Below are positions 31,280 through 64,000 of a stretch of DNA of 64,000 bases, piece by piece (within the stretch, counting starts at the first letter, position 1; every line of letters starts with the position of its first letter). This DNA comes from Calditrichaceae bacterium (GTDB lineage Bacteria; Calditrichota; Calditrichia; Calditrichales; JBFXGD01): assembly GCA_050173015.1 (NCBI GenBank), contig JBFXLE010000014.1:36474-100473 (forward strand), written 5' to 3'. The position numbers and the translations under genes are program-made. Under the pieces are notes generated by a model. The model saw only the letters and a program-made list of their open reading frames with translations, ran no database searches and was not told where the DNA came from.

Positions 31280-33202
31280 ATGTCGTTAAAAGTATTGGTA
31301 CGATTTATTTTTTTCTTATTACTATTTCCCATTATTCTGTTTGCTCAAAAGTTTGGAGAGATTTCAGATTCTGAATTACAGATGAAAAGTATCCCGGAGG
31401 ATCCCGAGGCGAACGCGGTTATTCTATTTAATAAAGGAGAGATCTCCATTACTCCCGATTTTGACCTGGAGTTTAATATCCACAAAAGAATAAAAATCTT
31501 GACAGAAGCCGGAAAAAAGTTTGCCAATGTAGAACTATATTATTTCCATGAGGATAAAATCCATAATCTTAAGGCGTATTCATATACACCAAATGGAAAG
31601 AAAATTAAATTGAAAAAGGATGATATATTTGAAGAAAGAACTTCCAATATTAAAAAGAAAATTTTTGCTGTTCCTGGCGTGGAAATCGGTTCAGTAATCG
31701 AATATAGCTATCGTCTTGAATCAGAATATATCCACAGGCTTGAACCCTGGTATTTTCAGGATCACGAGCTAACAAAATTCAGCGAGATTGCTGTTATTTT
31801 ACCAAGCGGATTTTCTTACAGTGTGCTTACAAAAAACTCTATCATCAATGATGTTTTGCATACGAAACAGAAAATACGAGATCCGTATGACCCGAGGAAA
31901 ACTTGTACAAAATTTATCTGGACCGCGCAAGATGTCCCGGGAATCAAAAATGAACCATACATGACCAATTATTCTGATTACTACACTCAACTTCTATTCC
32001 AACTGGTCTCTTTTGAAAATCCATATTATAAGTATAATTATGCAAAAGAATGGGATGATATGGCGGAGCTGGTCTGGAAAAAGTACAGTGATTTTGTGGA
32101 ACAGAACGATGGTCTGAAAGATTTTACAAAAAGTTTATACATGCCGTCAATAGATACATTGGAAGTAATCGGTAAAATATATGATTTTGTTCGTTCGGAT
32201 ATTAGAAATACTGATGAGATTAGACTTTTTAGCGATGAGTTTAAGCAGCCGAAAGATGTATATAAGGATAAGGAAGGGAATGCTAATGAAAAAAATATTT
32301 TACTCATCAATCTGCTTAAACATGCCGGGCTTGATGCAAAACCTTTATTGATAAGTAAGAAATCCCAGGGAATGATTAACCCCAATTGGGTGCAATTGCA
32401 ACAGTTTAATCATGTACTGGTTTATCTGAGGTTAAAAAATCAGGAATTATTCCTAAATACATGTGACAAATATTGCCCTCCCGGATATCTCACTCCGGAA
32501 TTCGATGTAATGGATGGACTTCTAATCGATGAAAAGAAGGGAAGTATCATAAAAATAAAACCATTACGAGCCGAAAATCTGCTTACTGTTGAAACGGATG
32601 CTAATCTGGAAGTAAATAATAGTCTGATCGCGCATTCAAATTTAACATATGAAGGATTAGAAGCGGTGTCAGAAAGAGAAAATATTTCAGCTAAAGAATT
32701 GAATGAATATTTCGCAAACAAATTGAAAGATTTATATTCTGAGGCAGTTCTTGATTCTTTTAACTGTGAAAATTTAGATTCTATTGATTTGCCATTGACT
32801 GTTGATCTGTTCTATCATCTGCCTGATTATATAAATGATACGGGTACAATTGCATATTTTACGCCTCCATTTATGACAAGGACTAAGAAAAACCCGTTTA
32901 TTAGAGAACAAAGACAATTCCCGGTGGATTATTCGTCTGATTTTACTAAGTCGGAAACAATAAACATAAATTTTCCAGATACATATTCTATTAGTGAAAA
33001 ACCCAGAATCGCGAGTGGAAGAATGGAAAATTTATCTTTTACAAAAATCTATTTTGAGAATGGAAATTCGATTGAGTGCCGAAGAAAGTTTAATTTGGGT
33101 CGTACACAATTTCAACCTAAAGAATACATGACTTTAAGAAAAATCTATGATATAATTGTCAGCTCGGATCAGGATCAAATAGTTCTTAACCATAGCGAAT
33201 AA
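31280..33202 (+). CDS. DUF3857 + transglutaminase-like secreted protein (catalytic Cys absent)
   Basis: Signal peptide, RIKIL, GSVIEYSY; GNANEK in place of GDCKD; FNHV. Confidence 0.8.
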   Translation: MSLKVLVRFIFFLLLFPIILFAQKFGEISDSELQMKSIPEDPEANAVILFNKGEISITPDFDLEFNIHKRIKILTEAGKKFANVELYYFHEDKIHNLKAYSYTPNGKKIKLKKDDIFEERTSNIKKKIFAVPGVEIGSVIEYSYRLESEYIHRLEPWYFQDHELTKFSEIAVILPSGFSYSVLTKNSIINDVLHTKQKIRDPYDPRKTCTKFIWTAQDVPGIKNEPYMTNYSDYYTQLLFQLVSFENPYYKYNYAKEWDDMAELVWKKYSDFVEQNDGLKDFTKSLYMPSIDTLEVIGKIYDFVRSDIRNTDEIRLFSDEFKQPKDVYKDKEGNANEKNILLINLLKHAGLDAKPLLISKKSQGMINPNWVQLQQFNHVLVYLRLKNQELFLNTCDKYCPPGYLTPEFDVMDGLLIDEKKGSIIKIKPLRAENLLTVETDANLEVNNSLIAHSNLTYEGLEAVSERENISAKELNEYFANKLKDLYSEAVLDSFNCENLDSIDLPLTVDLFYHLPDYINDTGTIAYFTPPFMTRTKKNPFIREQRQFPVDYSSDFTKSETININFPDTYSISEKPRIASGRMENLSFTKIYFENGNSIECRRKFNLGRTQFQPKEYMTLRKIYDIIVSSDQDQIVLNHSE

Positions 33203-33361
33203 TGGTTCTGTAATATATTGCTTGCAAAAAATTTATACTTAAACAGATTGCACTTGATTTTAAATATAACGGGTGATGAGTTGCGGACATCGGTTGCTTT
33301 CTATAGCAGTTCCATTCAATCGGAAGCACATTCATCATTATAGGATTAGGATGATCAAGAA

Positions 33362-35266
33362 ATGAATAAAATATTTATATTTTTTATCTTGTTATTATGC
33401 TTTACCGGACCGAGTTATCCCCAGATAATAACTACGGATGTAATAATGGATTCATTAACAGATAATGCGAATGCCTTGATTCTGGATGATATAAATATTT
33501 GTACAATCAAAGCGAGAGATTCGGCTGAGTTTTATAAAAAAAGAAGAATTTTGATTAAAAACAGATCAGGGGAAAAATACTGCAGCCTATGGTTGCAGGA
33601 ATCAGATTTTATTGAAGTCAAAGATATAAAAGCGGTAATAACTGATACTTCAGGCCGAAAGTTGAAAGAGCTTCACAAAAATGAGATTAAAGAATCAACA
33701 ATATCTCCAGATCATATTCTTTACGTGAAAAATAAAAATAAACATTTCGAAATGGTTTATCATAGTTATCCTTATGTTTTTGAATATTCTTACGCACTGG
33801 AACTGAGCAGCCTTTTTTTTTGGCCCTCATGGTATCCGCAATCTGATATTCCGGTCTTATTTTCCAGTTATAAACTAATTATTCAATACCCAACATCATA
33901 TAATACTCATAATATTGGCATGGAAATATTTCCTCTGAAGACTGTGGAAAGGGGGGATTCGGTTCATTATTGGGAGATAAAAAATGTACACCCCAGGATT
34001 AGCGAAGATTTTTTGCCACCGGAAAATGAATTGCAAATAGCGTTGTTTTTCGCGCCTGAAAATTTCAGGTTGGGAAAGATTTCCGGATCGTTTGCGAATT
34101 GGGATGTAATGGCGAATTGGTACCGGCGGATGGCAGAAGGCAGCTATCAGTTGTCGCCGGAAGCACAATATGAGGTTCAGGAGCTGATAAAAGGGGTAGA
34201 TAATAAATATGAAAAAGTAAGAGTCATATATAAATATCTCCAGGAGAAGACGCGATATGCGGCTATTTATTTAGATATAGGAGGATGGAAACCAAATTCC
34301 GCAATCTCAGTTCATAAAAATCGTTATGGGGATTGTAAAGATCTTACCACCTATATGGTGGCAATGCTTACTGAGGCCGGGATTCAGGCATATCCCGCTC
34401 TCGCAAAGACCAGGGATCGGGGAACTGTGATTAAGGATTTCCCCTCAAATCAGTTTAATCACTGTATCGCATTTGTACCGTTTGATCACGATACTCTTTG
34501 GCTGGAGTGTACGGCTGATTTTCTTGACATAAAAGATGTTCCATATACGATCGAAGGAATTGACGCACTGGTCATTAAGGATGATGCGGGAGAGATGATA
34601 CGAACGCCTGTTGCTCCTTCTAATAAAAATAGATGGAATTCAACTTCCATCGCGGAATTAAATTCTTCCGGTAACCTTAAGATAAAAGGTTGTGTAAAAA
34701 CGACAGGGAAACAAAAACGATATTTTAAAACGCTGTTTGAATATGCAAAAAATGATGAAAAAAAAGTACAACTTCAGAAAATTTTTGGGGATCACATACC
34801 GGGTCTTACAATAAATAATTATCAGTTTTCAGAAGATGGTTCTGACGAAAAAGTGGTCTCAATTAGTTTTGATGGCAATTATGATAAGGCATTTTCAAAG
34901 AGTGGATCTCGTCTCTTTGTAAATCCGAATATTTTTAATCGGAAGACATCATCTAATATTCCAGATGAGACTGTAGATGATCGTAAATTTCCTATACATT
35001 TCAATTATCCATATCAGGATTTGGATTCAGTGGTGATTAAGATTCCATACGGGTACGATTTGGAAGCTGCTCCGGAAATGATCAATATCGATAATTCCTT
35101 TGCATCATTTAAAACAGAATATAATTTTGAAGATCAGTATTTAACTTATGTGAGGTATTTCGAGTATAAAACAAATTATTTTTCAAGAGATTTATATTCA
35201 GAATATCTTGAGTTTTTAAAGACAGTGGTTAAATTTGATCAGACAAAATTTGTTTTCAAACATTAA
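33362..35266 (+). CDS. DUF3857 + transglutaminase-like secreted protein
   Basis: TRYAAI.L.IGGWKP, YGDCKD, FNHCI, WLECT. Confidence 0.85.
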   Translation: MNKIFIFFILLLCFTGPSYPQIITTDVIMDSLTDNANALILDDINICTIKARDSAEFYKKRRILIKNRSGEKYCSLWLQESDFIEVKDIKAVITDTSGRKLKELHKNEIKESTISPDHILYVKNKNKHFEMVYHSYPYVFEYSYALELSSLFFWPSWYPQSDIPVLFSSYKLIIQYPTSYNTHNIGMEIFPLKTVERGDSVHYWEIKNVHPRISEDFLPPENELQIALFFAPENFRLGKISGSFANWDVMANWYRRMAEGSYQLSPEAQYEVQELIKGVDNKYEKVRVIYKYLQEKTRYAAIYLDIGGWKPNSAISVHKNRYGDCKDLTTYMVAMLTEAGIQAYPALAKTRDRGTVIKDFPSNQFNHCIAFVPFDHDTLWLECTADFLDIKDVPYTIEGIDALVIKDDAGEMIRTPVAPSNKNRWNSTSIAELNSSGNLKIKGCVKTTGKQKRYFKTLFEYAKNDEKKVQLQKIFGDHIPGLTINNYQFSEDGSDEKVVSISFDGNYDKAFSKSGSRLFVNPNIFNRKTSSNIPDETVDDRKFPIHFNYPYQDLDSVVIKIPYGYDLEAAPEMINIDNSFASFKTEYNFEDQYLTYVRYFEYKTNYFSRDLYSEYLEFLKTVVKFDQTKFVFKH

Positions 35267-43460: not shown

Positions 43461-44231
43461 ATGACGATTAACAATTCAGAAATAGATCAGCAAAAACAAA
43501 AACAAATTCTGAAACTTGTAACGAACAGCTTCTATAAAGAACTGGTCAACTATGGCGTTGAGCAAAGTGATATCGTAACGGTCTCGGTTAATCTTCTGGA
43601 TTTAGTTACAGAAAAAGATAATGTAGCGTCCGGAAATAATCATTACTTTAATAATATTTTTTCCATCAAAGCGGTTGAGAATCATTGGAATGAAAAAAAT
43701 TGTTTATGTCTTGAAAAAGTGTCTCTTGAACCGCTTAAAATAAATCATCTCGCGAAAATCACCGAATGGCTGAAGGCACCGGAAATAAGGGAAACATTTA
43801 TTGAATTTTTCCCTAAGACAAAAGATGAGCTGCAAAAATATCTTTTTGATAATGTCAATCATTGCTACTTTGCCATTTTTTATGAAAAAGAACTGGTCGG
43901 ATTTATCGGGGCAGATACCATTGACCGGAATTTTAAAAAACTTGAAATGAAAAAGCTGATTGGGGATGCGGAATTCAGGAGCAGGGGAATAGGCAAAATT
44001 GCGACTTTTCTGTTTTTATACCATACCTTCAAAATTCTGAATTTCAATAAAGTCTATATTCATTCACTTGATACTAACATTAAGAATATCAATTTAAACA
44101 GCAAATTTGGATTTGAACTTGAAGGGATTTTATATAAAGACGCCTATCTTAAGGGTGTCTATCGTGACGTCCTAAGGATGGGTTTGCTAAAAACAAAATG
44201 GGAGAAAATTTTTTCAAATCCAAAACATTGA
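43461..44231 (+). CDS. RimJ/RimL-type GNAT acetyltransferase with extra N-terminal helical domain
   Basis: IGDAEFRSRGIGK, N..NINLNSKFGFELEG, DVLRMGLL. Confidence 0.8.
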   Translation: MTINNSEIDQQKQKQILKLVTNSFYKELVNYGVEQSDIVTVSVNLLDLVTEKDNVASGNNHYFNNIFSIKAVENHWNEKNCLCLEKVSLEPLKINHLAKITEWLKAPEIRETFIEFFPKTKDELQKYLFDNVNHCYFAIFYEKELVGFIGADTIDRNFKKLEMKKLIGDAEFRSRGIGKIATFLFLYHTFKILNFNKVYIHSLDTNIKNINLNSKFGFELEGILYKDAYLKGVYRDVLRMGLLKTKWEKIFSNPKH

Positions 44232-49224: not shown

Positions 49225-52200
49225 ATGAGAAAATTTTCTACAGCTCTACTATTTATTTTAATGGCCGGTAATCTATTTGCAACCGACAAAAGTGGAACCA
49301 TAACCGCTGAAACCTGGACCCTTGCCGGGTCGCCTTATCATATAACGGGCAACATTAAAGTGGTAAATCTCACTATCGAGCCTGGTGTCTCTGTTTTGTT
49401 TAAGGGTGACTATGATTTTAATATTGAAGGTATTTTTAAAGCAGTAGGGACCGCTGAGGATTCGATTATTTTTAAAAATGATCCGACCTATACGGGTGGC
49501 TGGACAGGCATCAATTTTAAATCTGCGTATCTGGGTTCTGAAATGGCTTTTTGCAGCATAAAAGACGGAAAAGATTATGGGGTTCTGACTAATGAGGATA
49601 TAGATCTGACTATTAGAAATTCAAATATTTCAAACAATGGAGGAAAAGGGGTTTATGTTAAAGGAAAAACAACGAATATTTTCAAATGTACTATAAAAAA
49701 TAACGCAAGTGACGGAATATTATTAGATAGTCAGTCAAACGCGATCGTATCTAATTGTATTATTTCGAACAATAGAAACGGAATCTATACCAATGACGGA
49801 AAGGCAACCCTCAAAAATACTGTCATATCTTATCAGACCTCTTGGGGAATATACCTTCAAAATGGTAATGATGTTGTTAATGTAATCAACTCAACAATTG
49901 TCTATAACTATCTGAATGGTATTTTTAAAGCCAGTGGTACAATAAGTGTAAATAATTCTATCGTATATTTTAACAATAATTCAAATAATCAAATCACCCC
50001 GCTCGATCTTCCGGTTACCTACAGCGCTGTTCAATTCGGTTATTCAGGTACGGGGAACATAGGCAACCTTGTTGAAGATCCGTATTTTGAAGATAATACG
50101 ACTTTTAAACTTCTTGAAAATTCAGCCTGTATCGACATGGGTGATCCGGATGTTTCCTATAATGATCTCTATTTTCCGCCTTCTCACAAACTGACCAGAA
50201 ATGATATGGGCGCTTATGGCGGTCCGGATGCCGGTTTTTGGTACGAACCACTATTTATAACAAAAGAGTCGATTGATTATGGTAAGGTTCGCCGGGATAG
50301 CACAAAAACCGAAACAATAACCGTAAAAAATTATGGCGATTCTCTTTTGACAGTCTCATCCATCATTCTCTCAGGGGCTGACCCGACGCAGTTTTCAGTG
50401 AATGTCAGTCCATTCTCTTTAAATCCCAGGGACAGTCTGGTTGTCATCATAAATTTTACCCCGGAAGGTACAAACTCTTATTCCGTCGGACTTGACCTCT
50501 CCAGCAACAGTGGCAACACTTCAATTCCACTCAGCGGAACGGGGGTAATCCCGCAAATCCATGTGGCACAGGATTTAATTCTGTTCGGAGAAATTAAAGT
50601 CGGAAATTCAGGCTCAGAAGAGCTGAGCATTATAAATATGGGACAGGATACCTTAGTAATAAACAGCATTGAAGCCTCTCTACCAGAATTCAGCTCAGAT
50701 ACCACATCCGGGACCATTGCCCCCGGCGGTTTGATGAATATTCATGTTATATTTATGCCAGATAATTATGGAAACTATGACGGTATTTTATCCATATACA
50801 GCAATGATCCGGACCGCAGCCGGCTGGATGTCACAGTGAGGGGAACCGGACTGGCCCCGAATATTGCCGTGGCTCCGGATTCGGTTAAATTCGGAAATAT
50901 TGCCGTAAAAGACAGCTCGCAATTTTCCGCTTATGTACTAAATTCGGGAAACGACGATTTACAAGTCGATTCCATCGGTATTTATGGATTAGATACTGGT
51001 TATTTTTCAATTTTCAATAATCCGGCCCCGTTCATTTTATCAGCTGGAGGCCCAAATATTGAAGTTCAGGTTAAATTTCTGCCGGATACTATAAAAGATT
51101 TTTCGGCGTCGCTTGATTTTTATAGCAATGATCCGGATCAGGCCATTCGTAAAATTCACCTTAATGGATCAGGAATCGCGCCTTACCTGACGACAGACAG
51201 CGATAGCCTGATCTTCGGAAATATTATCGTGGACAGAGATTCTGTGATGTCTGTATCTGTAAGTAACGAAGGTAATAGTTCTCTTGTTGTTGAGAGCACA
51301 GATGTTACGGGTGTTAATCCGGATGACTATACAATCGTTGGCGGCGAGGGGGCTTTTACGCTTGAGCCCGATGATCCCGCGCGTCAAATAGTCATTAATT
51401 TCCATCCTGTTTCCGAAGGAGTGAAAAACGCTCAGCTTAATATAAACAGCAATGATCCATTCAAACCCGTCACTGCCATTGCTCTTGAAGGTGTGGCTCT
51501 CCAGCCGGATATTTCAGTCACTCCGGATTCCCTGAATTTTGGAGCGCTTGAGCTACGCAGCGACTCGGTTATGACGGTCAGTGTCAGCAATATCGGAATA
51601 AATGATCTGGAAGTGCTGGACACACAACTTGAAGGCGAAGATGCCGGGGAATTTTCGATTTTTAGCGGTGGAGGAGCGTTTAGTCTGCCGGTGGGCAGCG
51701 ATCCGCATCAGATAATGCTCCGGTTTGCTCCAACAGAAGACGGGGATAAGGAAGCGGTATTAAAAATTACCAGTAATGATCATATCCTGGAAACAATACG
51801 ATTACCGCTCAAAGGCAAGGGCGTTGCTCCGGTAATGGTGATCGATACCCTGGAGCTCGATTTCGGCACCGTCCATATGGATTCAGACACCACAGTTCAT
51901 CTGTTGATCACCAACAGCGGGTCTGCTGAGTTGTTTATCGACAGCACCATCATATCCGGACTTAACGCGGATGATTATATAATAACGCGGGGGCAAGCGC
52001 CTTTATCTGTTCAAAAAAATGATGGAACCGATACGATAGCGGTTAAATTCCATCCGGTAAACGGTGGTGAGCGTCTGGCAAATCTTACGATTGTAACGAA
52101 TGATCCGGAAAATTCAAGGGTAAATGTCCTGTTAAAAGGAAAATCCTTCACTACCGGCAAATCATTAATTGTATCGGATCAAAATGGAGAAATAAGTTTT

Positions 52201-54078
52201 GGAGAAGTTCTGATCAGTCTGGAAAATACGCGGGAAATAAACGTCTCAAATTATGGAACGAATGATCTTGTGATTGACAGCGTTCGATTCAACGGATTGA
52301 ATACGACTGAATTCTCATTAGAGGAACAGACCTTTCCAATCGTTCTGACAATGAATGACGATCCGCGGAATTTTAAGATATATTTTTCTCCTTTAACAGC
52401 GGGACAAAAAACAGCCGATCTTCTCATCTACAGTAATGATACAGCCAATAATCCGTTACCTGTCGCGCTGACAGGATGGGGAAAAATCGATGATACGCCG
52501 GCAAATTTTGTTTTCAATCCGGCCGCGGTTTTATTGACCATGGACAGTACATATACTTTTCAAATTGGTATTTCTGATGATGAAACCGAAGTCGAATCGG
52601 TAGATTTGTGTATCCGTAAGGGTGGGGAGTTCAATTTTCAACGGTTATCCCTTAACGAATCAACACAGGATCTCTGGTCCGTCCAAATTGACGGGCAGTA
52701 TATTACATCACGAGGAATTGAATACTATTTTGAAGCCGTTCACGGAGGGGGAAAAAGCTTGTATCCGGAGAATGGTTCGGAAAATCCGGCGGTTGCCACT
52801 GTTTCTATACCTGCAATGAATTTTCCGGGACTTACTCAGCAAAACACGTATCAAAAGATTTCTTTTCCGGCTAACACCGGTGGTAAAATGCTCAAAGATT
52901 TACTTTTGGATGATCTTGGTGAATATGATAATTCAAAATACAGATTGTTTGACTGGGATATTTCAAGTGAATCATATGTCGAATTAACCGATATGAATAA
53001 AATTGTTCAGACGGGCAAGGCATTTTGGCTGATTACAAAAGAACAAACACAGCTCGATCTTGAGAATTGTCAGTCATCAAATACGGGAAGCGATTATTCA
53101 ATTACACTCAAAAAAGGGTGGAATATGATCGGTAATCCGTTTGCTTTCCGGGTTGACTGGGCTGCAATAAATACATCCGCGATTCAGGGCGGGACACTCA
53201 ACTATTATAATGGAACCGGGTGGGAAGCAGCTTCTGATCTTCAACCGTTCAAAGGATACGCGGTTTACGCGATGAATGATACGGTGTTAAATATTCCCGC
53301 TGTTGAAGGTACGGCTTCGAAATCTAAACTGAGTCAGAGTGAAACTGCTCAGAAAGAATGGTATTTTCAGATTAGAGCCGCTAAGGGAAAATACAAAGAT
53401 GATAATAATTACGCCGGAGCGCGATCGGGAGCTTTGAATGCAAGAGACCGATTGGATATTCTGGAGCCGCCGGTAATTGGTGATTATGTCTCCCTGTTCT
53501 TCGAATCGGAAGATGAAAATGATCCGGGTAAATTCATGGGAGATTTCAGGACTCCTGAGGAGGAAGGGTATTCCTTTGATTTTCGGGTGGTCAGTAACTT
53601 TTCCGGAACGACCGAAATACAAGTTGATCCCGTTAATCTTCCGGAATATTATGAATGGATATTGGTTTCGCCGGAATCAAAAATTATTTATCCGAACGGA
53701 ATAATTCAGACCGATCGGTCAGAGAAAAATTACCGTCTTGTCGTGGGTTCAAAATCATATTTAGACGGTGTGTCAGCTGATTTTCTTGAGCTGCCGGTAG
53801 CGTTTAAACTGAATCAGAATTACCCGAATCCGTTTAATCCCGAAACCAATGTCAGGTTTGAACTGCCAATCGAAGGAATCGTATCTGTTGATATCTATGA
53901 TATACTTGGCCGACGGGTAAAAAATATTTATGGCAATGAATTTATGGAAGCCGGATATCATAAGATTATCTGGGACGGCAGTAACAATACAGGACAAAAA
54001 GCCGCGAGCGGTATTTATTTTCTGCATTTAAAGGCCGGACAATATTCAAAAACAATAAAGATGATATTGCAGAGATAG
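49225..54078 (+). CDS. Large secreted protein: right-handed beta-helix, seven ASH/choice-of-anchor-D Ig repeats, FlgD-Ig/T9SS-type C-terminal domain
   Basis: Signal peptide; WTLAGSPY + parallel beta-helix repeats; 7x FG...N.G...L...F.P...SNDP...L.G.G; LNQNYPNPFNPET..IYDILG..WDG..SGIYF. Confidence 0.88.
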   Translation: MRKFSTALLFILMAGNLFATDKSGTITAETWTLAGSPYHITGNIKVVNLTIEPGVSVLFKGDYDFNIEGIFKAVGTAEDSIIFKNDPTYTGGWTGINFKSAYLGSEMAFCSIKDGKDYGVLTNEDIDLTIRNSNISNNGGKGVYVKGKTTNIFKCTIKNNASDGILLDSQSNAIVSNCIISNNRNGIYTNDGKATLKNTVISYQTSWGIYLQNGNDVVNVINSTIVYNYLNGIFKASGTISVNNSIVYFNNNSNNQITPLDLPVTYSAVQFGYSGTGNIGNLVEDPYFEDNTTFKLLENSACIDMGDPDVSYNDLYFPPSHKLTRNDMGAYGGPDAGFWYEPLFITKESIDYGKVRRDSTKTETITVKNYGDSLLTVSSIILSGADPTQFSVNVSPFSLNPRDSLVVIINFTPEGTNSYSVGLDLSSNSGNTSIPLSGTGVIPQIHVAQDLILFGEIKVGNSGSEELSIINMGQDTLVINSIEASLPEFSSDTTSGTIAPGGLMNIHVIFMPDNYGNYDGILSIYSNDPDRSRLDVTVRGTGLAPNIAVAPDSVKFGNIAVKDSSQFSAYVLNSGNDDLQVDSIGIYGLDTGYFSIFNNPAPFILSAGGPNIEVQVKFLPDTIKDFSASLDFYSNDPDQAIRKIHLNGSGIAPYLTTDSDSLIFGNIIVDRDSVMSVSVSNEGNSSLVVESTDVTGVNPDDYTIVGGEGAFTLEPDDPARQIVINFHPVSEGVKNAQLNINSNDPFKPVTAIALEGVALQPDISVTPDSLNFGALELRSDSVMTVSVSNIGINDLEVLDTQLEGEDAGEFSIFSGGGAFSLPVGSDPHQIMLRFAPTEDGDKEAVLKITSNDHILETIRLPLKGKGVAPVMVIDTLELDFGTVHMDSDTTVHLLITNSGSAELFIDSTIISGLNADDYIITRGQAPLSVQKNDGTDTIAVKFHPVNGGERLANLTIVTNDPENSRVNVLLKGKSFTTGKSLIVSDQNGEISFGEVLISLENTREINVSNYGTNDLVIDSVRFNGLNTTEFSLEEQTFPIVLTMNDDPRNFKIYFSPLTAGQKTADLLIYSNDTANNPLPVALTGWGKIDDTPANFVFNPAAVLLTMDSTYTFQIGISDDETEVESVDLCIRKGGEFNFQRLSLNESTQDLWSVQIDGQYITSRGIEYYFEAVHGGGKSLYPENGSENPAVATVSIPAMNFPGLTQQNTYQKISFPANTGGKMLKDLLLDDLGEYDNSKYRLFDWDISSESYVELTDMNKIVQTGKAFWLITKEQTQLDLENCQSSNTGSDYSITLKKGWNMIGNPFAFRVDWAAINTSAIQGGTLNYYNGTGWEAASDLQPFKGYAVYAMNDTVLNIPAVEGTASKSKLSQSETAQKEWYFQIRAAKGKYKDDNNYAGARSGALNARDRLDILEPPVIGDYVSLFFESEDENDPGKFMGDFRTPEEEGYSFDFRVVSNFSGTTEIQVDPVNLPEYYEWILVSPESKIIYPNGIIQTDRSEKNYRLVVGSKSYLDGVSADFLELPVAFKLNQNYPNPFNPETNVRFELPIEGIVSVDIYDILGRRVKNIYGNEFMEAGYHKIIWDGSNNTGQKAASGIYFLHLKAGQYSKTIKMILQR

Positions 54079-56874: not shown

Positions 56875-56948
56875 TGTGACTTTTTTGGACATATATTAAT
56901 GGTGGAGTTCAATATTTTTGTTATTTGTAAGATAAAATTTTAAATCGA

Positions 56949-56977
56949 TTGACATCCTGCCCGTTTGGTTTTATACT
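56949..56977 (+). promoter_or_regulatory. Near-consensus sigma70 promoter upstream of the AraC gene
   Basis: TTGACA(56949-56954)-17 bp-TATACT(56972-56977). Confidence 0.7.
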
Positions 56978-57257
56978 TTTATAAGTCAATTTGTAAAGTA
57001 TTTTTTAATCCTGCCTACTGCTCTGCCTTACTGGATTATTTATCGGCCGTTTGGTTTGTGTGTGGTCTTTTGTGTTTGACTTGACGGAACTGTTTGTTCT
57101 TTATGGATCTTTTTGGATAGAGAGTCATGTGTAAATTGGAATAAACAAAATCTATTCATAACCCTGCAAGGGAGGCAATATAGTTCTCATCGTCAATGAC
57201 GGATAAAATACCAATGAGCTCTGAAGTAGAAAATATATTTTTTTAGAAAAGTCCAAA

Positions 57258-57581
57258 ATGGAAAACACAGTTAAAAAAGCCAAACAGATTATCCACACAC
57301 AATATCAAGAGATACAAAGTGTTAAGGAAATTACAAATACGCTTGGTTGTAATTACCATACGCTACGGTCTGTTTTTGTCCGTGAGACAGGTTATACGTT
57401 AGTGTCCTACCTTAATAAAATAAGGTGTCTGTATGCGGCAATTATATTAAAAACAACAAACAAGAAATTGTACCAAATTGCAATTGAAGTGGGTTTCAAT
57501 AATGAGAGTTATTTCATTAAGGTTTTTAAAAAATATCAGGGAAAATGTCCTGATGAATACAGGAGGAAATTTTCAGAATAA
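57258..57581 (+). CDS. Stand-alone AraC-family HTH regulator (no effector domain)
   Basis: F..ETG.TL..YL..IR...A..L, IA.EVGFNNESYF.KVFKK..G..P.EYR; 107 aa. Confidence 0.9.
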   Translation: MENTVKKAKQIIHTQYQEIQSVKEITNTLGCNYHTLRSVFVRETGYTLVSYLNKIRCLYAAIILKTTNKKLYQIAIEVGFNNESYFIKVFKKYQGKCPDEYRRKFSE

Positions 57582-57777
57582 ATTTTATATAGATTGTTTA
57601 GTCAATAATTACCATCAAAATTTACAATCAAAAAATGCAATGTTTTCTTGTTGATTTTTCTACTTAATAAACCTATAATTTATTTCAAAGGTCCATTCTT
57701 GAATGAACTTATCATATTTTAGCATTGGAAACTAAAACATTCTAGTTATAAATATTTTTGATATACGGATTAATCAT

Positions 57778-59199
57778 ATGAGAAAAAATAAAATTATTTT
57801 AATCAACACTGGTTTGGATGGCTGTTTCAAAGAAAGTCTCAGAGAAAAATATAATTATCCACCATATGGCTTACTTAATATCGCTTCAATGTTATCTATG
57901 CACGGTTACAATGTAACTTTGTTTGATTTTTTTTCTGAATCTATTAGTAAGTCAATATTTACTGAAAAATTGATAAAAGACTCGCAGAATATATTAGCTA
58001 TAGGTATTTCAACATATACTGAAAGTTTCCATTTAGCAATTTCGATAGCAGATATTATTAAACAAACATTGCCAAAAACAAAAATTATTTTGGGAGGTGT
58101 ACATGTTTCGTTTAAACCTAATGAGGGATTGGAAAGTAATGATATCGATTTTATTGTAAGAGGTGAGGGTGAATCAAAAATAATTCCTTTATTAGAACAT
58201 ATAAAATATCCAAATATTATAAGTCCTTATAAACTCAGGGGAATATCATTTAAAAATAGAGAAGGGAAAATAGTCCATACAGATAATATTGGGTACGTAA
58301 ATCGACTTGACTGTTTACCTCTCCCGTCTTATTACCTCATTGCACATAGTCAAGTTTATTCAGATACCCTGTCTATAGTTTCAAGCCGTGGTTGTCCAGG
58401 GAAATGTAATTTTTGTGCATCAAGAGAATTCAATGGTAAAAAATTCAGAATGCACTCTGCAATATGGATATTTTCTCTTCTATATTATTATTTCAACAAA
58501 ATAAATAAATTTAAAATTATAGATTTTATGGATGACGCCTTTACTGTAAACAAGAGAAGAGTAAAACATTTATTTAATATTCTTGAATTTAATAAATGTA
58601 ATTACATATGGACCTGCAAAAGTAGAACTGACTCTTTAGATGAATCTTTAATAAAGCTTCTTGCTCAGAATGGTTGTAAGTCAATACACCTTGGAATTGA
58701 AAGTAGTGATCAGAAAATATTAAACTCTATTGATAAAAGTATTACTCACGAAAGAAATTTAGAGATTATAAAATTATGTTATAAATATTCTATACGAGTT
58801 GAATGTTCATTCATGATAGGTTTACCAAAAGACACAAAAGAAACGATTGATAAGACTTTAATCTTTGCATCTGAAATCTCAGCCGCAAGAATAGGTTTAA
58901 CCTATGTTGGAATAGCAACTCCATTTCCAGGAACAAAAATATATGAAAATTCTAAATTGAATGGAATGAAGTTTTTAAATTCTAATTGGAAAAATTATAC
59001 AACTCGAAAACCAATTTATTATACCGACAACTTCTCCATAGAGGATTTAAGAAATGCATATCATTATTTTAATTTTGATAAAATAAAGTTAAAAGGAGAT
59101 AATATTATTTCTAAAATTAACCTCTCAGATTTTAAAAGGGGAATACAATTATGGATAAAAGAAGTAATTGAGTGTAAAATGAGTGTCCAAAAAAAGTGA
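57778..59199 (+). CDS. Cobalamin-binding radical SAM protein (class B methyltransferase-like)
   Basis: PPYGLL.IAS.L and GGVH B12 domain; SRGCPGKCNFC; DDAFT; GIES; TPFPGT. Confidence 0.92.
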   Translation: MRKNKIILINTGLDGCFKESLREKYNYPPYGLLNIASMLSMHGYNVTLFDFFSESISKSIFTEKLIKDSQNILAIGISTYTESFHLAISIADIIKQTLPKTKIILGGVHVSFKPNEGLESNDIDFIVRGEGESKIIPLLEHIKYPNIISPYKLRGISFKNREGKIVHTDNIGYVNRLDCLPLPSYYLIAHSQVYSDTLSIVSSRGCPGKCNFCASREFNGKKFRMHSAIWIFSLLYYYFNKINKFKIIDFMDDAFTVNKRRVKHLFNILEFNKCNYIWTCKSRTDSLDESLIKLLAQNGCKSIHLGIESSDQKILNSIDKSITHERNLEIIKLCYKYSIRVECSFMIGLPKDTKETIDKTLIFASEISAARIGLTYVGIATPFPGTKIYENSKLNGMKFLNSNWKNYTTRKPIYYTDNFSIEDLRNAYHYFNFDKIKLKGDNIISKINLSDFKRGIQLWIKEVIECKMSVQKK

Positions 59200-59209
59200 G
59201 TAAAACATT

Positions 59210-60655
59210 ATGATTAATGAAAGTAAAATAAATGTCATTGAAAAGAATCCTCTGTATTTGGAATACGACAACAATACAGTTATTATAATAGTGCCTGAAA
59301 AACCTTTGTGGCTCAAAACGTCAACAACAGGAAAATGGATTTATGAACAAATTAAATCTAGTCATTTAAATATCAATGAATTGATAAGGTTAGCAGCAAA
59401 GAATTATTCTCTCCCAAAAGATGCATTAAAAGATTCGATCACAAACCTCATTTGTCAGCTTGAAGAAAATAATTTTATAAAATTTTCATCAGATACAAGT
59501 TTAACTTATAAGGACGATAACAATTTAAATCAAGTTAAACAAAAGAAATTAGAATTAAAGAATGATGAACTCCCAAAATTAGGACTAATAAACGTATGGT
59601 TTAATATTCTGTCTACTTGCAATTTATCATGTGATCATTGTTTTTTACACAAAGAAAAAAAAAGTAAACCAATTTCTTTTGAAGATGCAAAGTTTATTAT
59701 AAGCAATCTTGTTAAATTAAAACCGAAAAGATTAAATATCTCCGGTGGTGAACCATTGCTTCATCCAAATCTATTAGAGATATTGCAGTATGCAAAAGAT
59801 AGCTTCGATTGGGAAATTGTATTGGTTACAAATGGTCAAACTGAAAATGAGGAACTTATTAAATCTATTTCTGGATATTTATCATACATCCAAATTTCTA
59901 TTGACGGAATAAACTCTAGTACGAATGATAGAATACGTGGTACCGGTACATTTAAAAGAGCGGTGAACATTTTTAAAATATTGCATAGGATGAATAGCAG
60001 TTTAAAAAAATGTATTTCTTTTACACCTCATCCAGAAAATGTAAGCCAAATACCAGATTTATTTAAATTTGCAATTTCATTAGATGCTGATTTAATATAT
60101 ATCACTAAGCCTAAAATTCCGTCCAACAACAACAATGATCGATTTGATTCTTCAGAGTTTTTATCTCTACATTTTAGAGAAAAGGTATATTCACAATATG
60201 ATAAATTAATTAAAATATACATGGAATTAACAAAAGCAAACACCAATTCAACCAATATTAAGATGCCAATCGTTGATCCATTTTTTGATCCATCTCTTAA
60301 TTTATTAAATCCAATTAAAAGAGCTTGCTGTGGTGCTGGTGGAAGTATTCTTTTCATAAATGAATTAGGGGAATGTTATCCTTGTGCGGCATTAAATAGA
60401 CCTGAATTGAGTCTAGGTAATTTATTTAATACAAGCCTTGAGGAAATTTACTATAACAACTCAATTGCAGACTTTAGACAAAGCATTCATGTTGATAATA
60501 TCGATGAATGCCAAGAATGTTGTTTCAAATACATATGTGCTGGTGATTGTAGAGCATTATCTTATGAAATAAAAGACAAAACGCCATATTGTGAATTAAT
60601 AAAACAAAGATATCATAAACTTTTAAAAAATGTTTATTTGCCAAAACAATTATGA
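59210..60655 (+). CDS. RRE(PqqD)-radical SAM-SPASM peptide maturase
   Basis: N-terminal PqqD-like TG.WI...L...Y......L...L; CNLSCDHC; SGGEPLLHP; SPASM CGAG..YPC..CQEC..ICAGDCRA..YC. Confidence 0.9.
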   Translation: MINESKINVIEKNPLYLEYDNNTVIIIVPEKPLWLKTSTTGKWIYEQIKSSHLNINELIRLAAKNYSLPKDALKDSITNLICQLEENNFIKFSSDTSLTYKDDNNLNQVKQKKLELKNDELPKLGLINVWFNILSTCNLSCDHCFLHKEKKSKPISFEDAKFIISNLVKLKPKRLNISGGEPLLHPNLLEILQYAKDSFDWEIVLVTNGQTENEELIKSISGYLSYIQISIDGINSSTNDRIRGTGTFKRAVNIFKILHRMNSSLKKCISFTPHPENVSQIPDLFKFAISLDADLIYITKPKIPSNNNNDRFDSSEFLSLHFREKVYSQYDKLIKIYMELTKANTNSTNIKMPIVDPFFDPSLNLLNPIKRACCGAGGSILFINELGECYPCAALNRPELSLGNLFNTSLEEIYYNNSIADFRQSIHVDNIDECQECCFKYICAGDCRALSYEIKDKTPYCELIKQRYHKLLKNVYLPKQL

Positions 60656-60927
60656 AAACCTATTATAATAATTTATCAATTAAAGCAACTTCATGGATAA
60701 GATTCGAAAATTATATAAAAGTACCTAATCCATTTACTCAAAGAGAAGTCTTCTTAACAAATGAAAAAGCGGACATCTTTGTACTAATTGACTATGGTTA
60801 TAACCAAGAGGAAATACTCAGCAAATTAAAACCAAAATATAGTAATATTACAATGAATGAAATTATTAAAATTATTAACTTACTATTAGAACTAGATGTT
60901 ATTCAAGAAGTAGATCAATTCGATTAA
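60652..60927 (+). CDS. Stand-alone PqqD/RRE-like protein
   Basis: NP..REVFL.NE.ADIF.LID....EEI..L..KY......I..LLELDVI winged-helix pattern; ATGA overlap with the rSAM gene. Confidence 0.7.
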   Translation: MKTYYNNLSIKATSWIRFENYIKVPNPFTQREVFLTNEKADIFVLIDYGYNQEEILSKLKPKYSNITMNEIIKIINLLLELDVIQEVDQFD

Positions 60928-60942
60928 TATATTGGAGTTTAT

Positions 60943-61152
60943 ATGAATAGCTTAGAAAGTTATCTAAATGAAAGGATTGTACTGACATGTTTGAATGAGA
61001 TTAGTTATGCAGGAACTGTAAATAAAATATTAATGATTGATGATAATAAAGGGTTGCTCTTAAAAATTGATGAATTATCCGGCTTTTCAGTTTGGTGTCC
61101 ACAAAATTTTATTAAGGATATATTAATCATACCTATACCAAAATTAGATTGA
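60943..61152 (+). CDS. Small hypothetical protein, possible Sm/LSm-like fold
   Basis: GGAG RBS; LESYLNERIVLTCLNEISYAGTVNKI resembles an Sm1 motif. Confidence 0.55.
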   Translation: MNSLESYLNERIVLTCLNEISYAGTVNKILMIDDNKGLLLKIDELSGFSVWCPQNFIKDILIIPIPKLD

Positions 61153-61159
61153 TAAAAAA

Positions 61160-61816
61160 ATGAACGATATTTATCTGATATTTTTGACTTGTTACTTATT
61201 ATTGATAATCCTATATACTTTTAGTTTTTTTCTTTTAATAGAATATCCAAATAAGTTAATAATTTTAAGATCAGTATTAGGTCGTCTATATTTTATTAAA
61301 AATATTAAAGGTAATGAAAATGACATTATTTATCAATCTAGTATTGAAGGTTGTGGTTTAGCAACAATAAAAATGCTTTTTAAAAGGTTGAAAATTATTG
61401 AAACTATAGCTGATGATTTGATTATTAATTATAATTTTTCTTTGGACATGAAATCTATGTCAGGAATTATTGAAAGTACAGGATTTAATACGACTGGTTA
61501 TAGATTCGCTTCTATACGACAATTCGAAAATTTTTATCAATTAAACCCTGATAGTTACATAATATTGTTGATGAAAAGATATGATACTATAGATCAGATT
61601 TCATTAATGACGATTGTATTTTTTCCTGTTTATGTAATAACTGATTTTTTAAATAAACTAAAACTATTAAATTTTCCAGATTTTCATTGGGTTATATTAG
61701 ATAAATTCTCAGAAAAGGGAGCAGTGTTATCAGATCCATTTTTTGGGAAAATATTGTTGACTTCCTCTAGGTTCAAGAGTTGTTGGAGTAGATATGGATT
61801 AGTAATAAATAAGTGA
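61160..61816 (+). CDS. Membrane-anchored C39-family cysteine peptidase
   Basis: YQSSIEGCGLA (Q/C), FHWVIL (H), SDPFFG (D), F...W; N-terminal TM. Confidence 0.8.
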   Translation: MNDIYLIFLTCYLLLIILYTFSFFLLIEYPNKLIILRSVLGRLYFIKNIKGNENDIIYQSSIEGCGLATIKMLFKRLKIIETIADDLIINYNFSLDMKSMSGIIESTGFNTTGYRFASIRQFENFYQLNPDSYIILLMKRYDTIDQISLMTIVFFPVYVITDFLNKLKLLNFPDFHWVILDKFSEKGAVLSDPFFGKILLTSSRFKSCWSRYGLVINK

Positions 61817-61822
61817 GTTAAA

Positions 61823-62584
61823 ATGATAAATGTGAAAAACATATTTAAAACTTACGATGACAAGACGTTTGCTCTTGAAGATGTAAGTTTTAATCTTGAA
61901 CAAGGTCAAATAGTAACTGTTTTAGGTCATAATGGAGCAGGGAAATCCACGCTTCTTAAAATTATTGCAACTGTACTGGCTCCGACACAGGGGGAAGTTC
62001 ATTTTGATTCTATTTGTCTGACAAAAGCAAATCAAGACCAATTAAGAAATATAAAAAGAACTATTGGTTTTCTTACAGAAGATCCGAATCTTTTTGATAA
62101 TTTTACACCATTCGAGTATTTAACCTATTTGGGACAGCTATATGGGATTAACGATGATACAATACTAAAAACTAAGATTAACGATTTATTCATCTTATTT
62201 AATATTGATAAAGGTGAAACAAAATTTATAGACAAATATTCTTCTGGTTTGAAGAAAAGAATAGCTCTAGCGGGGGTTATGATCAACGAACCAAAGTTGG
62301 TTATATTGGATGAACCCACAAACAATCTCGATCCGGTTGGCGTCAAACTATTTATACAATTGATGCAAAATATTAAATCAAAAGGTACTTCTGTTGTTCT
62401 TGCTACGCATCAGCTTGAAATTGCAGAAAGAATTTCTGATGTGATTGTTGTGATCGATCATGGTAGAATTATATTTAAGGGTACTTTATCTTTACTGGAA
62501 AATATGTTTAATAAGATAAAAACAAATAAATCACTTGAAAATTTGTATACATTATTAGTAGAGGACGAGGCATTTGTTGAATGA
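61823..62584 (+). CDS. ABC transporter ATP-binding protein
   Basis: GHNGAGKST, YSSGLKKR, ILDEPTNNLD, ATH. Confidence 0.93.
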   Translation: MINVKNIFKTYDDKTFALEDVSFNLEQGQIVTVLGHNGAGKSTLLKIIATVLAPTQGEVHFDSICLTKANQDQLRNIKRTIGFLTEDPNLFDNFTPFEYLTYLGQLYGINDDTILKTKINDLFILFNIDKGETKFIDKYSSGLKKRIALAGVMINEPKLVILDEPTNNLDPVGVKLFIQLMQNIKSKGTSVVLATHQLEIAERISDVIVVIDHGRIIFKGTLSLLENMFNKIKTNKSLENLYTLLVEDEAFVE

Positions 62585-64000
62585 AATTACAAAAAGTGTA
62601 ATAATATTATATAAAACAAAATTAATAAATCATTATAGAAATTCATTTGTATTTAGGCTGTTGTTTGGTAGCCAACTATCTATTAATCATATAATTATAA
62701 CCCATGCAATTATTGTATTGTTGTATTTTGCTTTGTTTTATGTTTTGCCTTTCCAGTTACCCGAAATAATGCATTCAATTGCATTAAATTTGACGGACTA
62801 TATCGTTTACAGAGAATTTGTATGCAACTTATTCTTAGCGTATTTATTTTTTATGGGTATGCTTGTCGGCATGAATATGATCTTTGATATTACTATTAAT
62901 GAAAATATTCATTTTTTAAAACTCCCCACTATTATCGATGATTTAGTTTATTATAGACTAATAGAAGCAATATTGATAATTCTTAAGAACAGCTTCTACT
63001 TTACGTTACCGTTAATTTTATATATAGCAATTCTATCTTTTTCGCAAACAAGTCAGATCATGTTATATGTATTTTCCTATTTATGGATTTCCTTCTTAAT
63101 ATATTTTTTTGGGATTCTTCTATTTCTATTGTTAAAACGAATACTCAAAAAAATGAAACCCGAACGCTTATTTGTTAATATTATATTAGGATCTATAATT
63201 TTATTTGCTGTTACCGTTCGGGTACTAAAGGACAATAATATATTTCTTAATGAATTCTTATTTTGGTTAAATACTAATCATTATAATATTTATTTTTCCC
63301 CGGCTCATTTGGTACATAATATTATTGTAAGCAATAACAACAGCTTATTGATTGCTTTTTCATTTTTAATACCACTAATATTAATCTTGATTTTATTATT
63401 TGATCAAACTATAAAATTATTAAAAGTGTCTTACAAAAATATACATCTTTATCCAACATCAAAGGTGGTCTGTCAAAAATCGATATCATTTTTAACATAT
63501 AACAAGATAAATAATTTTTTGATGATTATTCCCATAAAAATCAGACCATTTATTATCAAAGATATTCTTACTTTAATACGTAAGCCATTTTTTCTGTTAA
63601 AGTTAATTCTATTTTTCCTATTTATAATAATTTTAACTTTATATCCTTTTGAACAAAAATCAAATATAGATTTTAATTTATTCCTTCTATATATCATTCC
63701 TTCATATATAATAAGCTTATTATTTATTAATTCTATTGGATTTGAAAAAAGTAATATATATCTGATTAAACGTTTGTTTCCTTCTTCTTTTAAATTTCTA
63801 ATGACCAGATTTCAAATTAATTTGTTTTGTTCAGTTATTATTTTATTCCCGATATTATCATTTTACTCATTGATTAACTTTGTGTCTATTACTTTAATTG
63901 AAACGTTGTTTAGGTTTTTTCTTGTATTTTTCAGCATTATTATAATGACAGTATTGGTAACGGGATATTCTGCATCGTTTTCTTTATTTAAAAATAAATA
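62577..64000 (+). CDS. ABC exporter permease (3'-truncated; absent from the ORF track)
   Basis: Hand translation: frame from TTG 62574/62577 (GAGG RBS) stays open to the window end; multi-TM; IIKDILTLIRKP and NSIGFEKSNIYLIK motifs. Confidence 0.8.
   Translation, partial: MNEITKSVIILYKTKLINHYRNSFVFRLLFGSQLSINHIIITHAIIVLLYFALFYVLPFQLPEIMHSIALNLTDYIVYREFVCNLFLAYLFFMGMLVGMNMIFDITINENIHFLKLPTIIDDLVYYRLIEAILIILKNSFYFTLPLILYIAILSFSQTSQIMLYVFSYLWISFLIYFFGILLFLLLKRILKKMKPERLFVNIILGSIILFAVTVRVLKDNNIFLNEFLFWLNTNHYNIYFSPAHLVHNIIVSNNNSLLIAFSFLIPLILILILLFDQTIKLLKVSYKNIHLYPTSKVVCQKSISFLTYNKINNFLMIIPIKIRPFIIKDILTLIRKPFFLLKLILFFLFIIILTLYPFEQKSNIDFNLFLLYIIPSYIISLLFINSIGFEKSNIYLIKRLFPSSFKFLMTRFQINLFCSVIILFPILSFYSLINFVSITLIETLFRFFLVFFSIIIMTVLVTGYSASFSLFKNK

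Follow-up and report, generated by a model that had tools for sequence, protein, structure and literature searches.

Close to the 3' end of a 64,000-nucleotide stretch of contig JBFXLE010000014.1 from a Calditrichaceae bacterium (the window, i.e. the whole stretch analysed), seven open reading frames (ORFs) on the + strand follow one another from position 57778 to the window end. Neighbouring genes are either 6-15 bp apart or overlap, by 4 bp in one case and by 11 bp in another. An earlier annotation made from the letters alone (the sequence-only reading) had interpreted them as a tightly coupled operon for a peptide that is modified by radical S-adenosylmethionine (rSAM) enzymes and exported, i.e. 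a peptide that is synthesized ribosomally and modified post-translationally (RiPP). The tight operon was borne out, as all seven ORFs point the same way and either overlap or lie no more than 15 bp apart, and domain scans together with fold evidence confirmed that the listed set of enzymes is real. We consider it rather likely that the operon encodes a rare, unnamed radical-SAM peptide-maturation pathway of the RiPP type, lying in a compositionally foreign stretch.

The first gene codes for a class B (B12-binding) rSAM enzyme of 473 amino acids (57778..59199), followed after a 10 bp gap by an rSAM enzyme of 481 amino acids (59210..60655) with an N-terminal PqqD-like domain, i.e. a putative RiPP recognition element (RRE), and a C-terminal SPASM domain (RRE-rSAM-SPASM enzyme). 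The latter gene overlaps by 4 bp with orf91 (60652..60927), which codes for a protein of 91 amino acids with the predicted fold of a free PqqD/RRE-like protein. Next come, after a gap of 15 bp, orf69 (60943..61152), a conserved protein of 69 amino acids predicted to be an Sm-like barrel, and, after another 7 bp, a stand-alone C39-like cysteine peptidase of 218 amino acids (61160..61816). A 6 bp gap precedes the gene for an ATP-binding cassette (ABC) ATPase of 253 amino acids (61823..62584; Pfam ABC_tran, 107 bits), which overlaps by 11 bp with that of a polytopic membrane protein of at least 475 amino acids (62574..64000), presumed from its hydrophobic segments to be the ABC permease. The permease ORF is open at its 3' end, running past position 63998, and the window stops inside the gene.

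The AT-richness that the sequence-only reading had judged by eye was confirmed by GC bins and by the profile of GC content at third codon positions (GC3). All seven 1-kb bins from position 57001 have a GC content of 0.226-0.298, compared with at least 0.322 in the lowest of the 57 earlier bins (range to 0.50). GC3 is 0.185-0.236 in five genes of the cluster, orf69 and the open-ended permease being left out of the table, and 0.314-0.493 in 36 other ORFs. The drop starts directly after a hybrid histidine-kinase gene ending at 56874 (about 56.9 kb), where GC falls from about 0.42 to 0.30-0.34. The intergenic region that follows this gene (56875..57257) forms the left edge of the AT-rich stretch. 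Within the stretch, 196 bp upstream of the class B gene, lies a gene missing from the list of the sequence-only reading (57258..57581, + strand; GC 0.32, GC3 0.315), which encodes an AraC/XylS-type regulator consisting of the helix-turn-helix (HTH) domain only (Pfam HTH_18 64.7 bits, HTH_AraC 54.3 bits). With 107 amino acids it is about the size of MarA or SoxS, and its position makes it a candidate regulator of the pathway. Scans of the whole window revealed neither a tRNA nor an Rfam element, no integrase-like domain was found among the ORFs scanned for domains, and a repeat search gave no flanking repeats of note. As these markers are missing and the right border lies beyond the window, it is the composition that identifies the AT-rich operon as a probable candidate for horizontal import.

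Two radical SAM enzymes and their relatives

The class B enzyme has an N-terminal B12-binding domain (Pfam PF02310, 65.3 bits) and a radical SAM core (PF04055, 67.6 bits) with the CxxxCxxC motif intact as CPGKCNFC at residue 206, and thus, by sequence, the architecture of a class B rSAM enzyme. All NCBIfam models that it approached remained far under their cut-offs: HpnJ (187, cut-off 578), ApyD (156, cut-off 750), BchE (151, cut-off 481), PhpK (131, cut-off 600) and the RiPP C-methyltransferase model TIGR03975 (84, cut-off 282). The enzyme is part of a broad continuum without a sharp gap in the scores, in which 50,760 representatives were found at E ≤ 1e-3 and the closest shares 48% identity with it; the nearest solved structure by sequence is AprD4 (78 bits).

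The second enzyme matched the Pfam families Radical_SAM (73.6 bits), Fer4_12 (37.3 bits) and SPASM (PF13186, 35.1 bits, cut-off 21.5). It contains CNLSCDHC at residue 137 and 10 Cys residues after residue 350, and in each of the nine members of its family 9-11 Cys residues are found in this region, with Cys 373, 374, 389, 392, 434, 437, 443, 447 and 461 invariant. The 481-residue protein is thus predicted to combine a radical SAM core with a SPASM domain at the C terminus carrying the Cys set for auxiliary clusters. The N-terminal PqqD match (residues 26-90) scored 17.8 bits, below the cut-off of 23.4, and PF05402 (PqqD) is pre-annotated on six of the nine family members.

As with the class B enzyme, comparison of the SPASM enzyme with NCBIfam gave scores under the cut-offs throughout, be it for StsB (116, cut-off 625), WgkB (99, cut-off 650), PapB (87, cut-off 340) and the SCIFF maturase (78, cut-off 425), for MftC (102, cut-off 265) and PqqE (74, cut-off 381), or for AlbA (70, cut-off 850) and DynA (72, cut-off 450). 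Neither rSAM enzyme could thus be assigned to a named family, in line with the sequence-only reading, which had been unable to place the peptide in a named class. Among solved structures, CteB comes closest in sequence (82.7 bits), and TigE scores 31.7 bits. We also considered a cyclopropyl synthase of the TvgB/TigE type, an assignment that was rejected on account of the missing GYW motif, which was found in none of the nine family members. In PMC10878394, GYW is described as the signature of cyclopropyl synthases, its Tyr ligating auxiliary cluster I.

The family of the SPASM enzyme is very small. In a search space of 5.8 billion protein clusters, 32 proteins among 7924 candidates were retrieved at E ≤ 1e-3, nine of which, including the window's own, scored 419-1089 bits. 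The enzyme thus has just eight close homologues (39-77% identity), after which the score falls from 419 to 95 bits. Two of these eight relatives (P0008 and P0009 in alignment A1) are rich in Arg and Ala, as proteins from high-GC organisms are, and the copy in the window is extremely AT-rich. Going by amino-acid composition, the family seems to be scattered over very different genomes.

A search of genome contigs with the SPASM alignment, based on generic patterns (SGGEPLLHP etc.), yielded PqqE-like or other distant rSAM proteins of 22-35% identity in all of the best 80 of at least 600 stretches, and neither a family member nor a copy of the window, a result that does not establish absence from that collection. 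When eight proteins of the window were compared with these 80 genome loci by tblastn, no match to orf91, orf69, the C39-like peptidase or the permease was found, and a single weak match to the class B enzyme was obtained (locus L061).

The free RRE-like protein, orf69 and the peptidase

No match for orf91 was found in Pfam or NCBIfam, and searching its profile against PDB sequences gave nothing meaningful. An AlphaFold 2 (AF2) model, calculated from a four-sequence alignment with a mean predicted local distance difference test (pLDDT) score of 69, contains strands at residues 16-18, 21-25 and 32-35 and helices at residues 37-47, 52-59 and 68-89. As three strands precede three helices (b-b-b-a-a-a), this topology has the order of PqqD/RRE domains. 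The top Foldseek matches in the PDB were the RREs of TbiB1 (leader-bound), CteB and lasso B1, followed at lower rank by those of TigE and TruD; all of them are weak (E 0.05-1.4, 0.05-0.5 for the top matches, template modelling (TM) score about 0.5). Neighbours in the ESM Atlas are clusters annotated as 'PqqD family peptide modification chaperone', MftB and PqqD at 0.91-0.92, and the Atlas model of orf91 itself gave TM scores of 0.75/0.79 with a PqqD cluster. Based on the topology, the RRE fold matches, the Atlas neighbours and the PF05402 annotation in the SPASM family, we accept, on moderate fold-level evidence, that two RRE-type modules are present, one fused and one free.

In the sequence-only reading the 69-residue ORF was listed without a role, as if it were filler. 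In fact, no other member of the cluster is as conserved as orf69, and the protein is predicted to fold into an Sm-like barrel. It has five homologues with 65-88% identity, and across the six sequences the segments S46-G-F-S-V-W-C-P53, F56-I-K58, I60-L61, I63-P64 and K67 are invariant. The N-terminal part shares a further block (R11, V13-L-T15, N18-E19, Y22-A-G24), and the middle and the tails are variable. AF2 predicted a short N-terminal helix and five strands, with a pLDDT of 89.4 in the best model and of 75, 63, 62 and 52 in the other four, and the Atlas model has a pLDDT of 0.80 and a predicted TM score of 0.70. Foldseek matches are Sm-like proteins (Edc3/Scd6 LSm, XC5848, Hfq, Lsm2-8 and Gemin6/7; TMq 0.6-0.69) with E values of about 1e-2, none reaching 1e-3, and comparison with an 'LSM domain' cluster of the ESM Atlas gave TM scores of 0.77/0.81. 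Pfam LSM14 matched weakly in two of the six family members (best E 0.005). orf69 itself had no match in Pfam or NCBIfam, a profile search found no PDB sequence, and a fold search of BFVD returned generic small barrels of unnamed phage proteins only. The resemblance to Sm-like, Hfq and LSm barrels is one of predicted fold, orf69 having no significant sequence similarity to them, and we thus describe it as a predicted Sm-like (LSm/Hfq-type) barrel. In a literature search we found no paper that links Sm-like proteins with radical-SAM RiPP clusters.

The longest contigs of the five orf69 homologues measure 2451, 9247, 968, 13107 and 10441 bp, those of the orf91 homologues 2451, 9247 and 968 bp, and those of the SPASM homologues include 9247, 13107, 10441 and 13005 bp. 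If equal sizes are taken to denote the same contigs, the SPASM enzyme, orf91 and orf69 appear to travel together in neighbourhoods that themselves lie out of sight; relatives of orf91 and orf69 that have diverged further may have escaped the word-indexed search. In the three relatives paired in this way the identities of orf69 and of the SPASM enzyme to the window proteins are 78% vs 77% (9247 bp), 69% vs 60% (13107 bp) and 65% vs 48% (10441 bp). A prediction of the orf91:orf69 complex scored 0.00, compared with a mark of 0.32, and weighs neither for nor against binding.

The peptidase gave a partial match to Pfam Peptidase_C39 (38.3 bits, cut-off 22), and a PDB sequence search found no solved relative. 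The motifs QSSIEGCG (residue 59) and HWV (residue 176) are present and, by comparison with C39 motifs, would hold the putative catalytic Gln, Cys and His. A hydrophobic segment (residues 9-27) provides a single N-terminal anchor and is followed by a stretch rich in Lys and Arg, which, by the positive-inside rule, suggests that the catalytic domain is located in the cytoplasm. The best NCBIfam models of the ABC ATPase, a DrrA-type ATPase (168 bits) and a lantibiotic-protection ABC protein (151 bits), stayed under their cut-offs. The permease has 11 hydrophobic peaks, two of them overlapping, which corresponds to at least 10 segments, and no match to it was found in Pfam, NCBIfam, PADLOC or, by tblastn, in a plasmid collection, where orf69 and the peptidase had no match either. 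We also considered a defence system and rejected it: PADLOC gave generic matches only, with pVip for the rSAM core and AAA-type models for the ABC ATPase, and none for orf91, orf69, the peptidase or the permease.

A plasmid-borne analogue and models of the pathway

The only relative with visible context is an uncharacterised cluster on the Clostridium estertheticum plasmid pDSM14864-244 (NZ_CP086250.1, 126.8-134.4 kb; locus L081). When the plasmid collection was searched with each of the two rSAM enzymes, this record came out at the top of the ranking both times. The SPASM query matched it with 27.9% identity over 91% of its length (137 bits); by summed score another record (H3) was higher, two rSAM genes contributing to its 181 bits. 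With the class B query, identity was 34.3% and the score 254 bits, followed by 154 bits as the second-best value among the 12 matches listed. In one direction the cluster encodes a 56-residue ORF, a 96-residue ORF, a B12-dependent rSAM enzyme, an RRE-SPASM enzyme, an S8 protease, a second B12-dependent rSAM enzyme, an ABC ATPase and a permease. Identities to the proteins of the window are 34% for both B12-dependent enzymes, 28% for the RRE-SPASM enzyme, which is annotated as 'PqqD family peptide modification chaperone', and 29% for the ABC ATPase; the 96-residue ORF has orf91 as its best match in the window (23% identity over 81 residues, E 0.003). No protein of the cluster reached any NCBIfam cut-off.

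Both loci thus contain, co-directionally, a free RRE-like protein, a class B rSAM enzyme, an RRE-rSAM-SPASM enzyme, a protease, an ABC ATPase and a permease. The Clostridium cluster differs from the operon in having two B12-dependent enzymes, an S8 instead of a C39 protease, a different permease and no orf69 homologue, and in a visible candidate precursor upstream. This is the 56-residue hypothetical protein (6948-7118 of the locus, 126823-126993 of NZ_CP086250.1), whose C-terminal half is rich in Gly, Ala, Val and Ser and whose gene lies directly upstream of that for the free RRE-like protein. By its gene content, the plasmid cluster shows that class B enzyme, RRE-SPASM enzyme, free RRE, protease and ABC system occur together as a recurring design, in which a short precursor-like gene can be present as well. 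In the passages of PMC8792950 consulted the cluster is not among the eight bacteriocin clusters, the core-peptide table lacks its peptide, and the sactipeptide clusters given there have other core peptides.

Among characterised systems, the three-domain architecture of the SPASM enzyme is that of CteB and of sactipeptide and ranthipeptide maturases such as StsB, PapB and the SCIFF maturase, with CteB being both its nearest solved structure by sequence and the source of one of the RREs resembling orf91. Its scores for StsB, PapB and the SCIFF maturase lie far under the cut-offs of these families, and no Cys-rich precursor is visible; to our knowledge, thioether-forming RRE-rSAM-SPASM systems normally lack a class B enzyme. 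A parallel in logic, compared by description only, is provided by the proteusins: polytheonamides are made with a radical epimerase and the B12-dependent C-methyltransferases PoyB and PoyC, the latter reportedly methylating valine. As there, a class B enzyme is paired with a second radical peptide-modifying enzyme, and the Clostridium candidate core, rich in Gly, Ala, Val and Ser, recalls proteusin substrates. Unlike in proteusin systems, no NHLP- or Nif11-type precursor was seen and the second enzyme is an RRE-SPASM protein and not a PoyD-type epimerase. TvgB and TigE share the RRE-rSAM-SPASM architecture, TigE being a weak sequence match whose RRE also resembles orf91, and differ by the GYW motif. 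Finally, the C39-type peptidase next to an ABC exporter is reminiscent of the peptidase-containing ABC transporters (PCATs) of double-glycine leader peptides. By analogy, the pair would probably do the same job, coupling leader removal to export, yet unlike in PCATs the functions are spread over three ORFs, with a singly anchored peptidase of 218 residues, an ATPase and a large permease of no known family.

From the domains, the coupling, the composition, the rarity, the apparent co-occurrence of orf69 and orf91 with the SPASM enzyme and the one distant plasmid cluster we infer the following pathway, as well as the existence and location of a precursor. The small AraC-type protein would turn the operon on. 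The leader of the precursor would be held on the PqqD/RRE folds, with orf91 serving the class B enzyme, in which an RRE is lacking. C-methylation, thioether and C-C cross-links, epimerisation and cyclopropanation all belong to radical-SAM RiPP chemistry. In this pathway the class B enzyme would alkylate unactivated carbons, most likely by C-methylation, and the RRE-fused SPASM enzyme would add a second radical modification, either a cross-link or an epimerisation. At the inner membrane face, the leader would then be cleaved off by the anchored C39-like peptidase, and the ATPase/permease pair may export the product or protect the producer (immunity). orf69 could act as an accessory protein, e.g. 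as a scaffold, chaperone or immunity factor.

Several observations weigh against this pathway. For both putative RREs the support by hidden Markov models (HMMs) is below threshold (17.8 bits for PqqD on the fused domain, none on orf91), and hhalign detected no significant relationship of orf91 to the N-terminal domain of the SPASM enzyme or to the whole family (E 0.2). The best NCBIfam neighbours of the class B enzyme are HpnJ, ApyD and BchE, with AprD4 lower in the list, and class B rSAM enzymes are not all methylases. The C39 match covers the last 44 residues of the peptidase only (175-218), which align to positions 87-130 of the 133-position profile. The pathway gives no explanation for the role of orf69, the C. 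estertheticum cluster has no counterpart of it, and its co-occurrence with the SPASM enzyme and orf91 is deduced from equal sizes of the longest contigs and not from contigs read. As to the precursor, which the sequence-only reading had failed to see in the window, we arrived at the same result by inspection of ORFs, by tblastn and by a six-frame composition scan: there is no plausible precursor ORF of at least 20 residues in 56875-57800 and no room between the genes, the Clostridium 56-residue ORF has no match in the window, and no ORF segment rich in Gly, Ala, Ser, Val and Thr was detected (20-residue segments with at least 16 of these residues). Since the operon runs past base 64000, the putative precursor would most likely be encoded beyond this position, downstream of the truncated permease. 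Thus, the interpretation given by the sequence-only reading stood with regard to enzyme set, coupling, anomalous composition and the lack of a named family, whereas its two PqqD-like domains came close to failing at the HMM level and are upheld by the PF05402 annotation of six of nine family members and by fold evidence.

orf69 may also be seen in a different role, namely as the substrate itself, i.e. as a small, possibly folded precursor whose invariant half (SGFSVWCP...FIK...IPIPK) is modified by both rSAM enzymes and then exported, and which the divergent C39-like peptidase might cut, e.g. after Ser46-Gly47. No other short ORF of the operon is left unassigned, orf69 adjoins the free RRE just as the Clostridium 56-residue candidate does, and it seems to co-occur with the SPASM enzyme. 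Its pattern of conservation, too, would fit leader, cleavage site and core, consisting of an N-terminal block, a variable middle and an invariant C-terminal block with Trp-Cys and Lys, and four of its five AF2 models are of moderate confidence only (75-52). On the other hand, two predictors arrive at a compact barrel of one helix and five strands for which Sm-like proteins are the best fold matches, so that the putative core would coincide with barrel strands 4-5, followed by merely 2-10 variable residues. Moreover, the sequence preceding Ser-Gly departs from the pattern of double-glycine leaders (an acidic residue at -4), conservation is higher in orf69 than in the enzyme (65% vs 48% for the 10441-bp contig), which is unusual for a precursor, and the Clostridium analogue has no homologue. 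Taken together, we regard a substrate role of orf69 as rather unlikely, and as slightly less likely still its most specific form, in which a folded Sm-like mini-protein is the true substrate, recognised by the RREs, modified by the rSAM enzymes at SGFSVWCP/FIK, trimmed and exported. If true, orf69 would represent a new RiPP precursor architecture and a new class present in a handful of genomes.

The operon could also serve the maturation of a protein or cofactor, as do QhpD/QhpC and the pathways to pyrroloquinoline quinone (PQQ) and mycofactocin, with the peptidase and the ABC proteins acting on that component instead of a secreted RiPP. SPASM enzymes with PqqD partners make cofactors as well, the NCBIfam neighbours include MftC (102 bits) and PqqE (74 bits), MftB and PqqD clusters surround orf91 in the Atlas, and the strong conservation of orf69 would suit a product of fixed function. 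Yet the scores for the cofactor families are all far under their cut-offs, the visible operon contains neither a dehydrogenase nor another enzyme that would use the cofactor, and neither the great rarity of the family nor the foreign composition of the stretch that contains it is typical of a housekeeping pathway to a cofactor. Moreover, clusters for exported peptides usually end in a peptidase together with an ABC exporter, and we therefore find a cofactor or protein-maturation pathway quite improbable. It is scarcely credible that the genes are chance neighbours or a decaying remnant with no joint function. The window stops inside the permease, which places the completeness of the operon beyond view, but the seven ORFs are intact and co-directional with gaps of at most 15 bp, the cofactor motifs are intact, the extreme GC3 is shared, and the neighbourhood of SPASM enzyme, orf91 and orf69 has apparently been kept in other contigs.

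Radical-SAM RiPP pathways are a main source of new peptide chemistry. A class B enzyme stands here beside a rare RRE-SPASM enzyme, neither in a named family, and since the SPASM enzyme has eight close relatives and fits no named family, the product of the favoured RiPP-type pathway likely bears an undescribed combination of modifications. The conserved Sm-like companion, whose apparently constant presence we did not find described for clusters of this sort, would be either a new type of accessory protein or a new kind of substrate. The overall logic of rSAM enzymes, RRE, protease and ABC exporter is already well known, and the key piece, the precursor, lies out of view.

The upstream region and the rest of the window

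Between the histidine-kinase and the AraC-type genes CCGTTTGGTTT is present in two copies 86 bp apart (56960-56971 and 57046-57057). The repeat pattern has 3 matches in the window, compared with 0.52 expected, and 3 matches were also obtained in 2 of 100 shuffles; the pair could be an operator or could be due to chance. A motif TAnnTTTG, which we take to be the -7 promoter consensus of the Bacteroidota type, occurs at 57753-57760, 18 nt before the start of the class B gene. With 64 occurrences in the window and 65 expected it provides no evidence for a promoter and was discarded.

The rest of the window is ordinary chromosome with genes for a PurL-like phosphoribosylformylglycinamidine (FGAM) synthase, a polyphosphate kinase, two-component systems and a MacB-type exporter. 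A second AT-rich patch (31280-35266, + strand; GC 0.34-0.35, GC3 0.31-0.32) encodes DUF3857 and transglutaminase-like proteins of about 640 amino acids each, and a third low-GC gene encodes a GNAT acetyltransferase (43461-44231, GC 0.33). On the - strand, a protein of 390 amino acids (24064-25236) has an HD domain (38.7 bits) and, at its C terminus, a PycTM 'Pycsar effector' transmembrane domain (107.8 bits) and may be a cyclic-nucleotide-responsive defence effector; a gene with an adenylate/guanylate-cyclase domain is located at 16411-17478, not adjacent to it. Finally, a surface protein of 1617 amino acids (49225-54078, + strand), which by its sorting domain is the chief pointer to a Bacteroidota-like host, has choice-of-anchor D repeats, seven in number, together with a beta-helix region and a tail for sorting by type IX secretion, the TIGR04183 sorting domain scoring 34.9 bits (cut-off 23).

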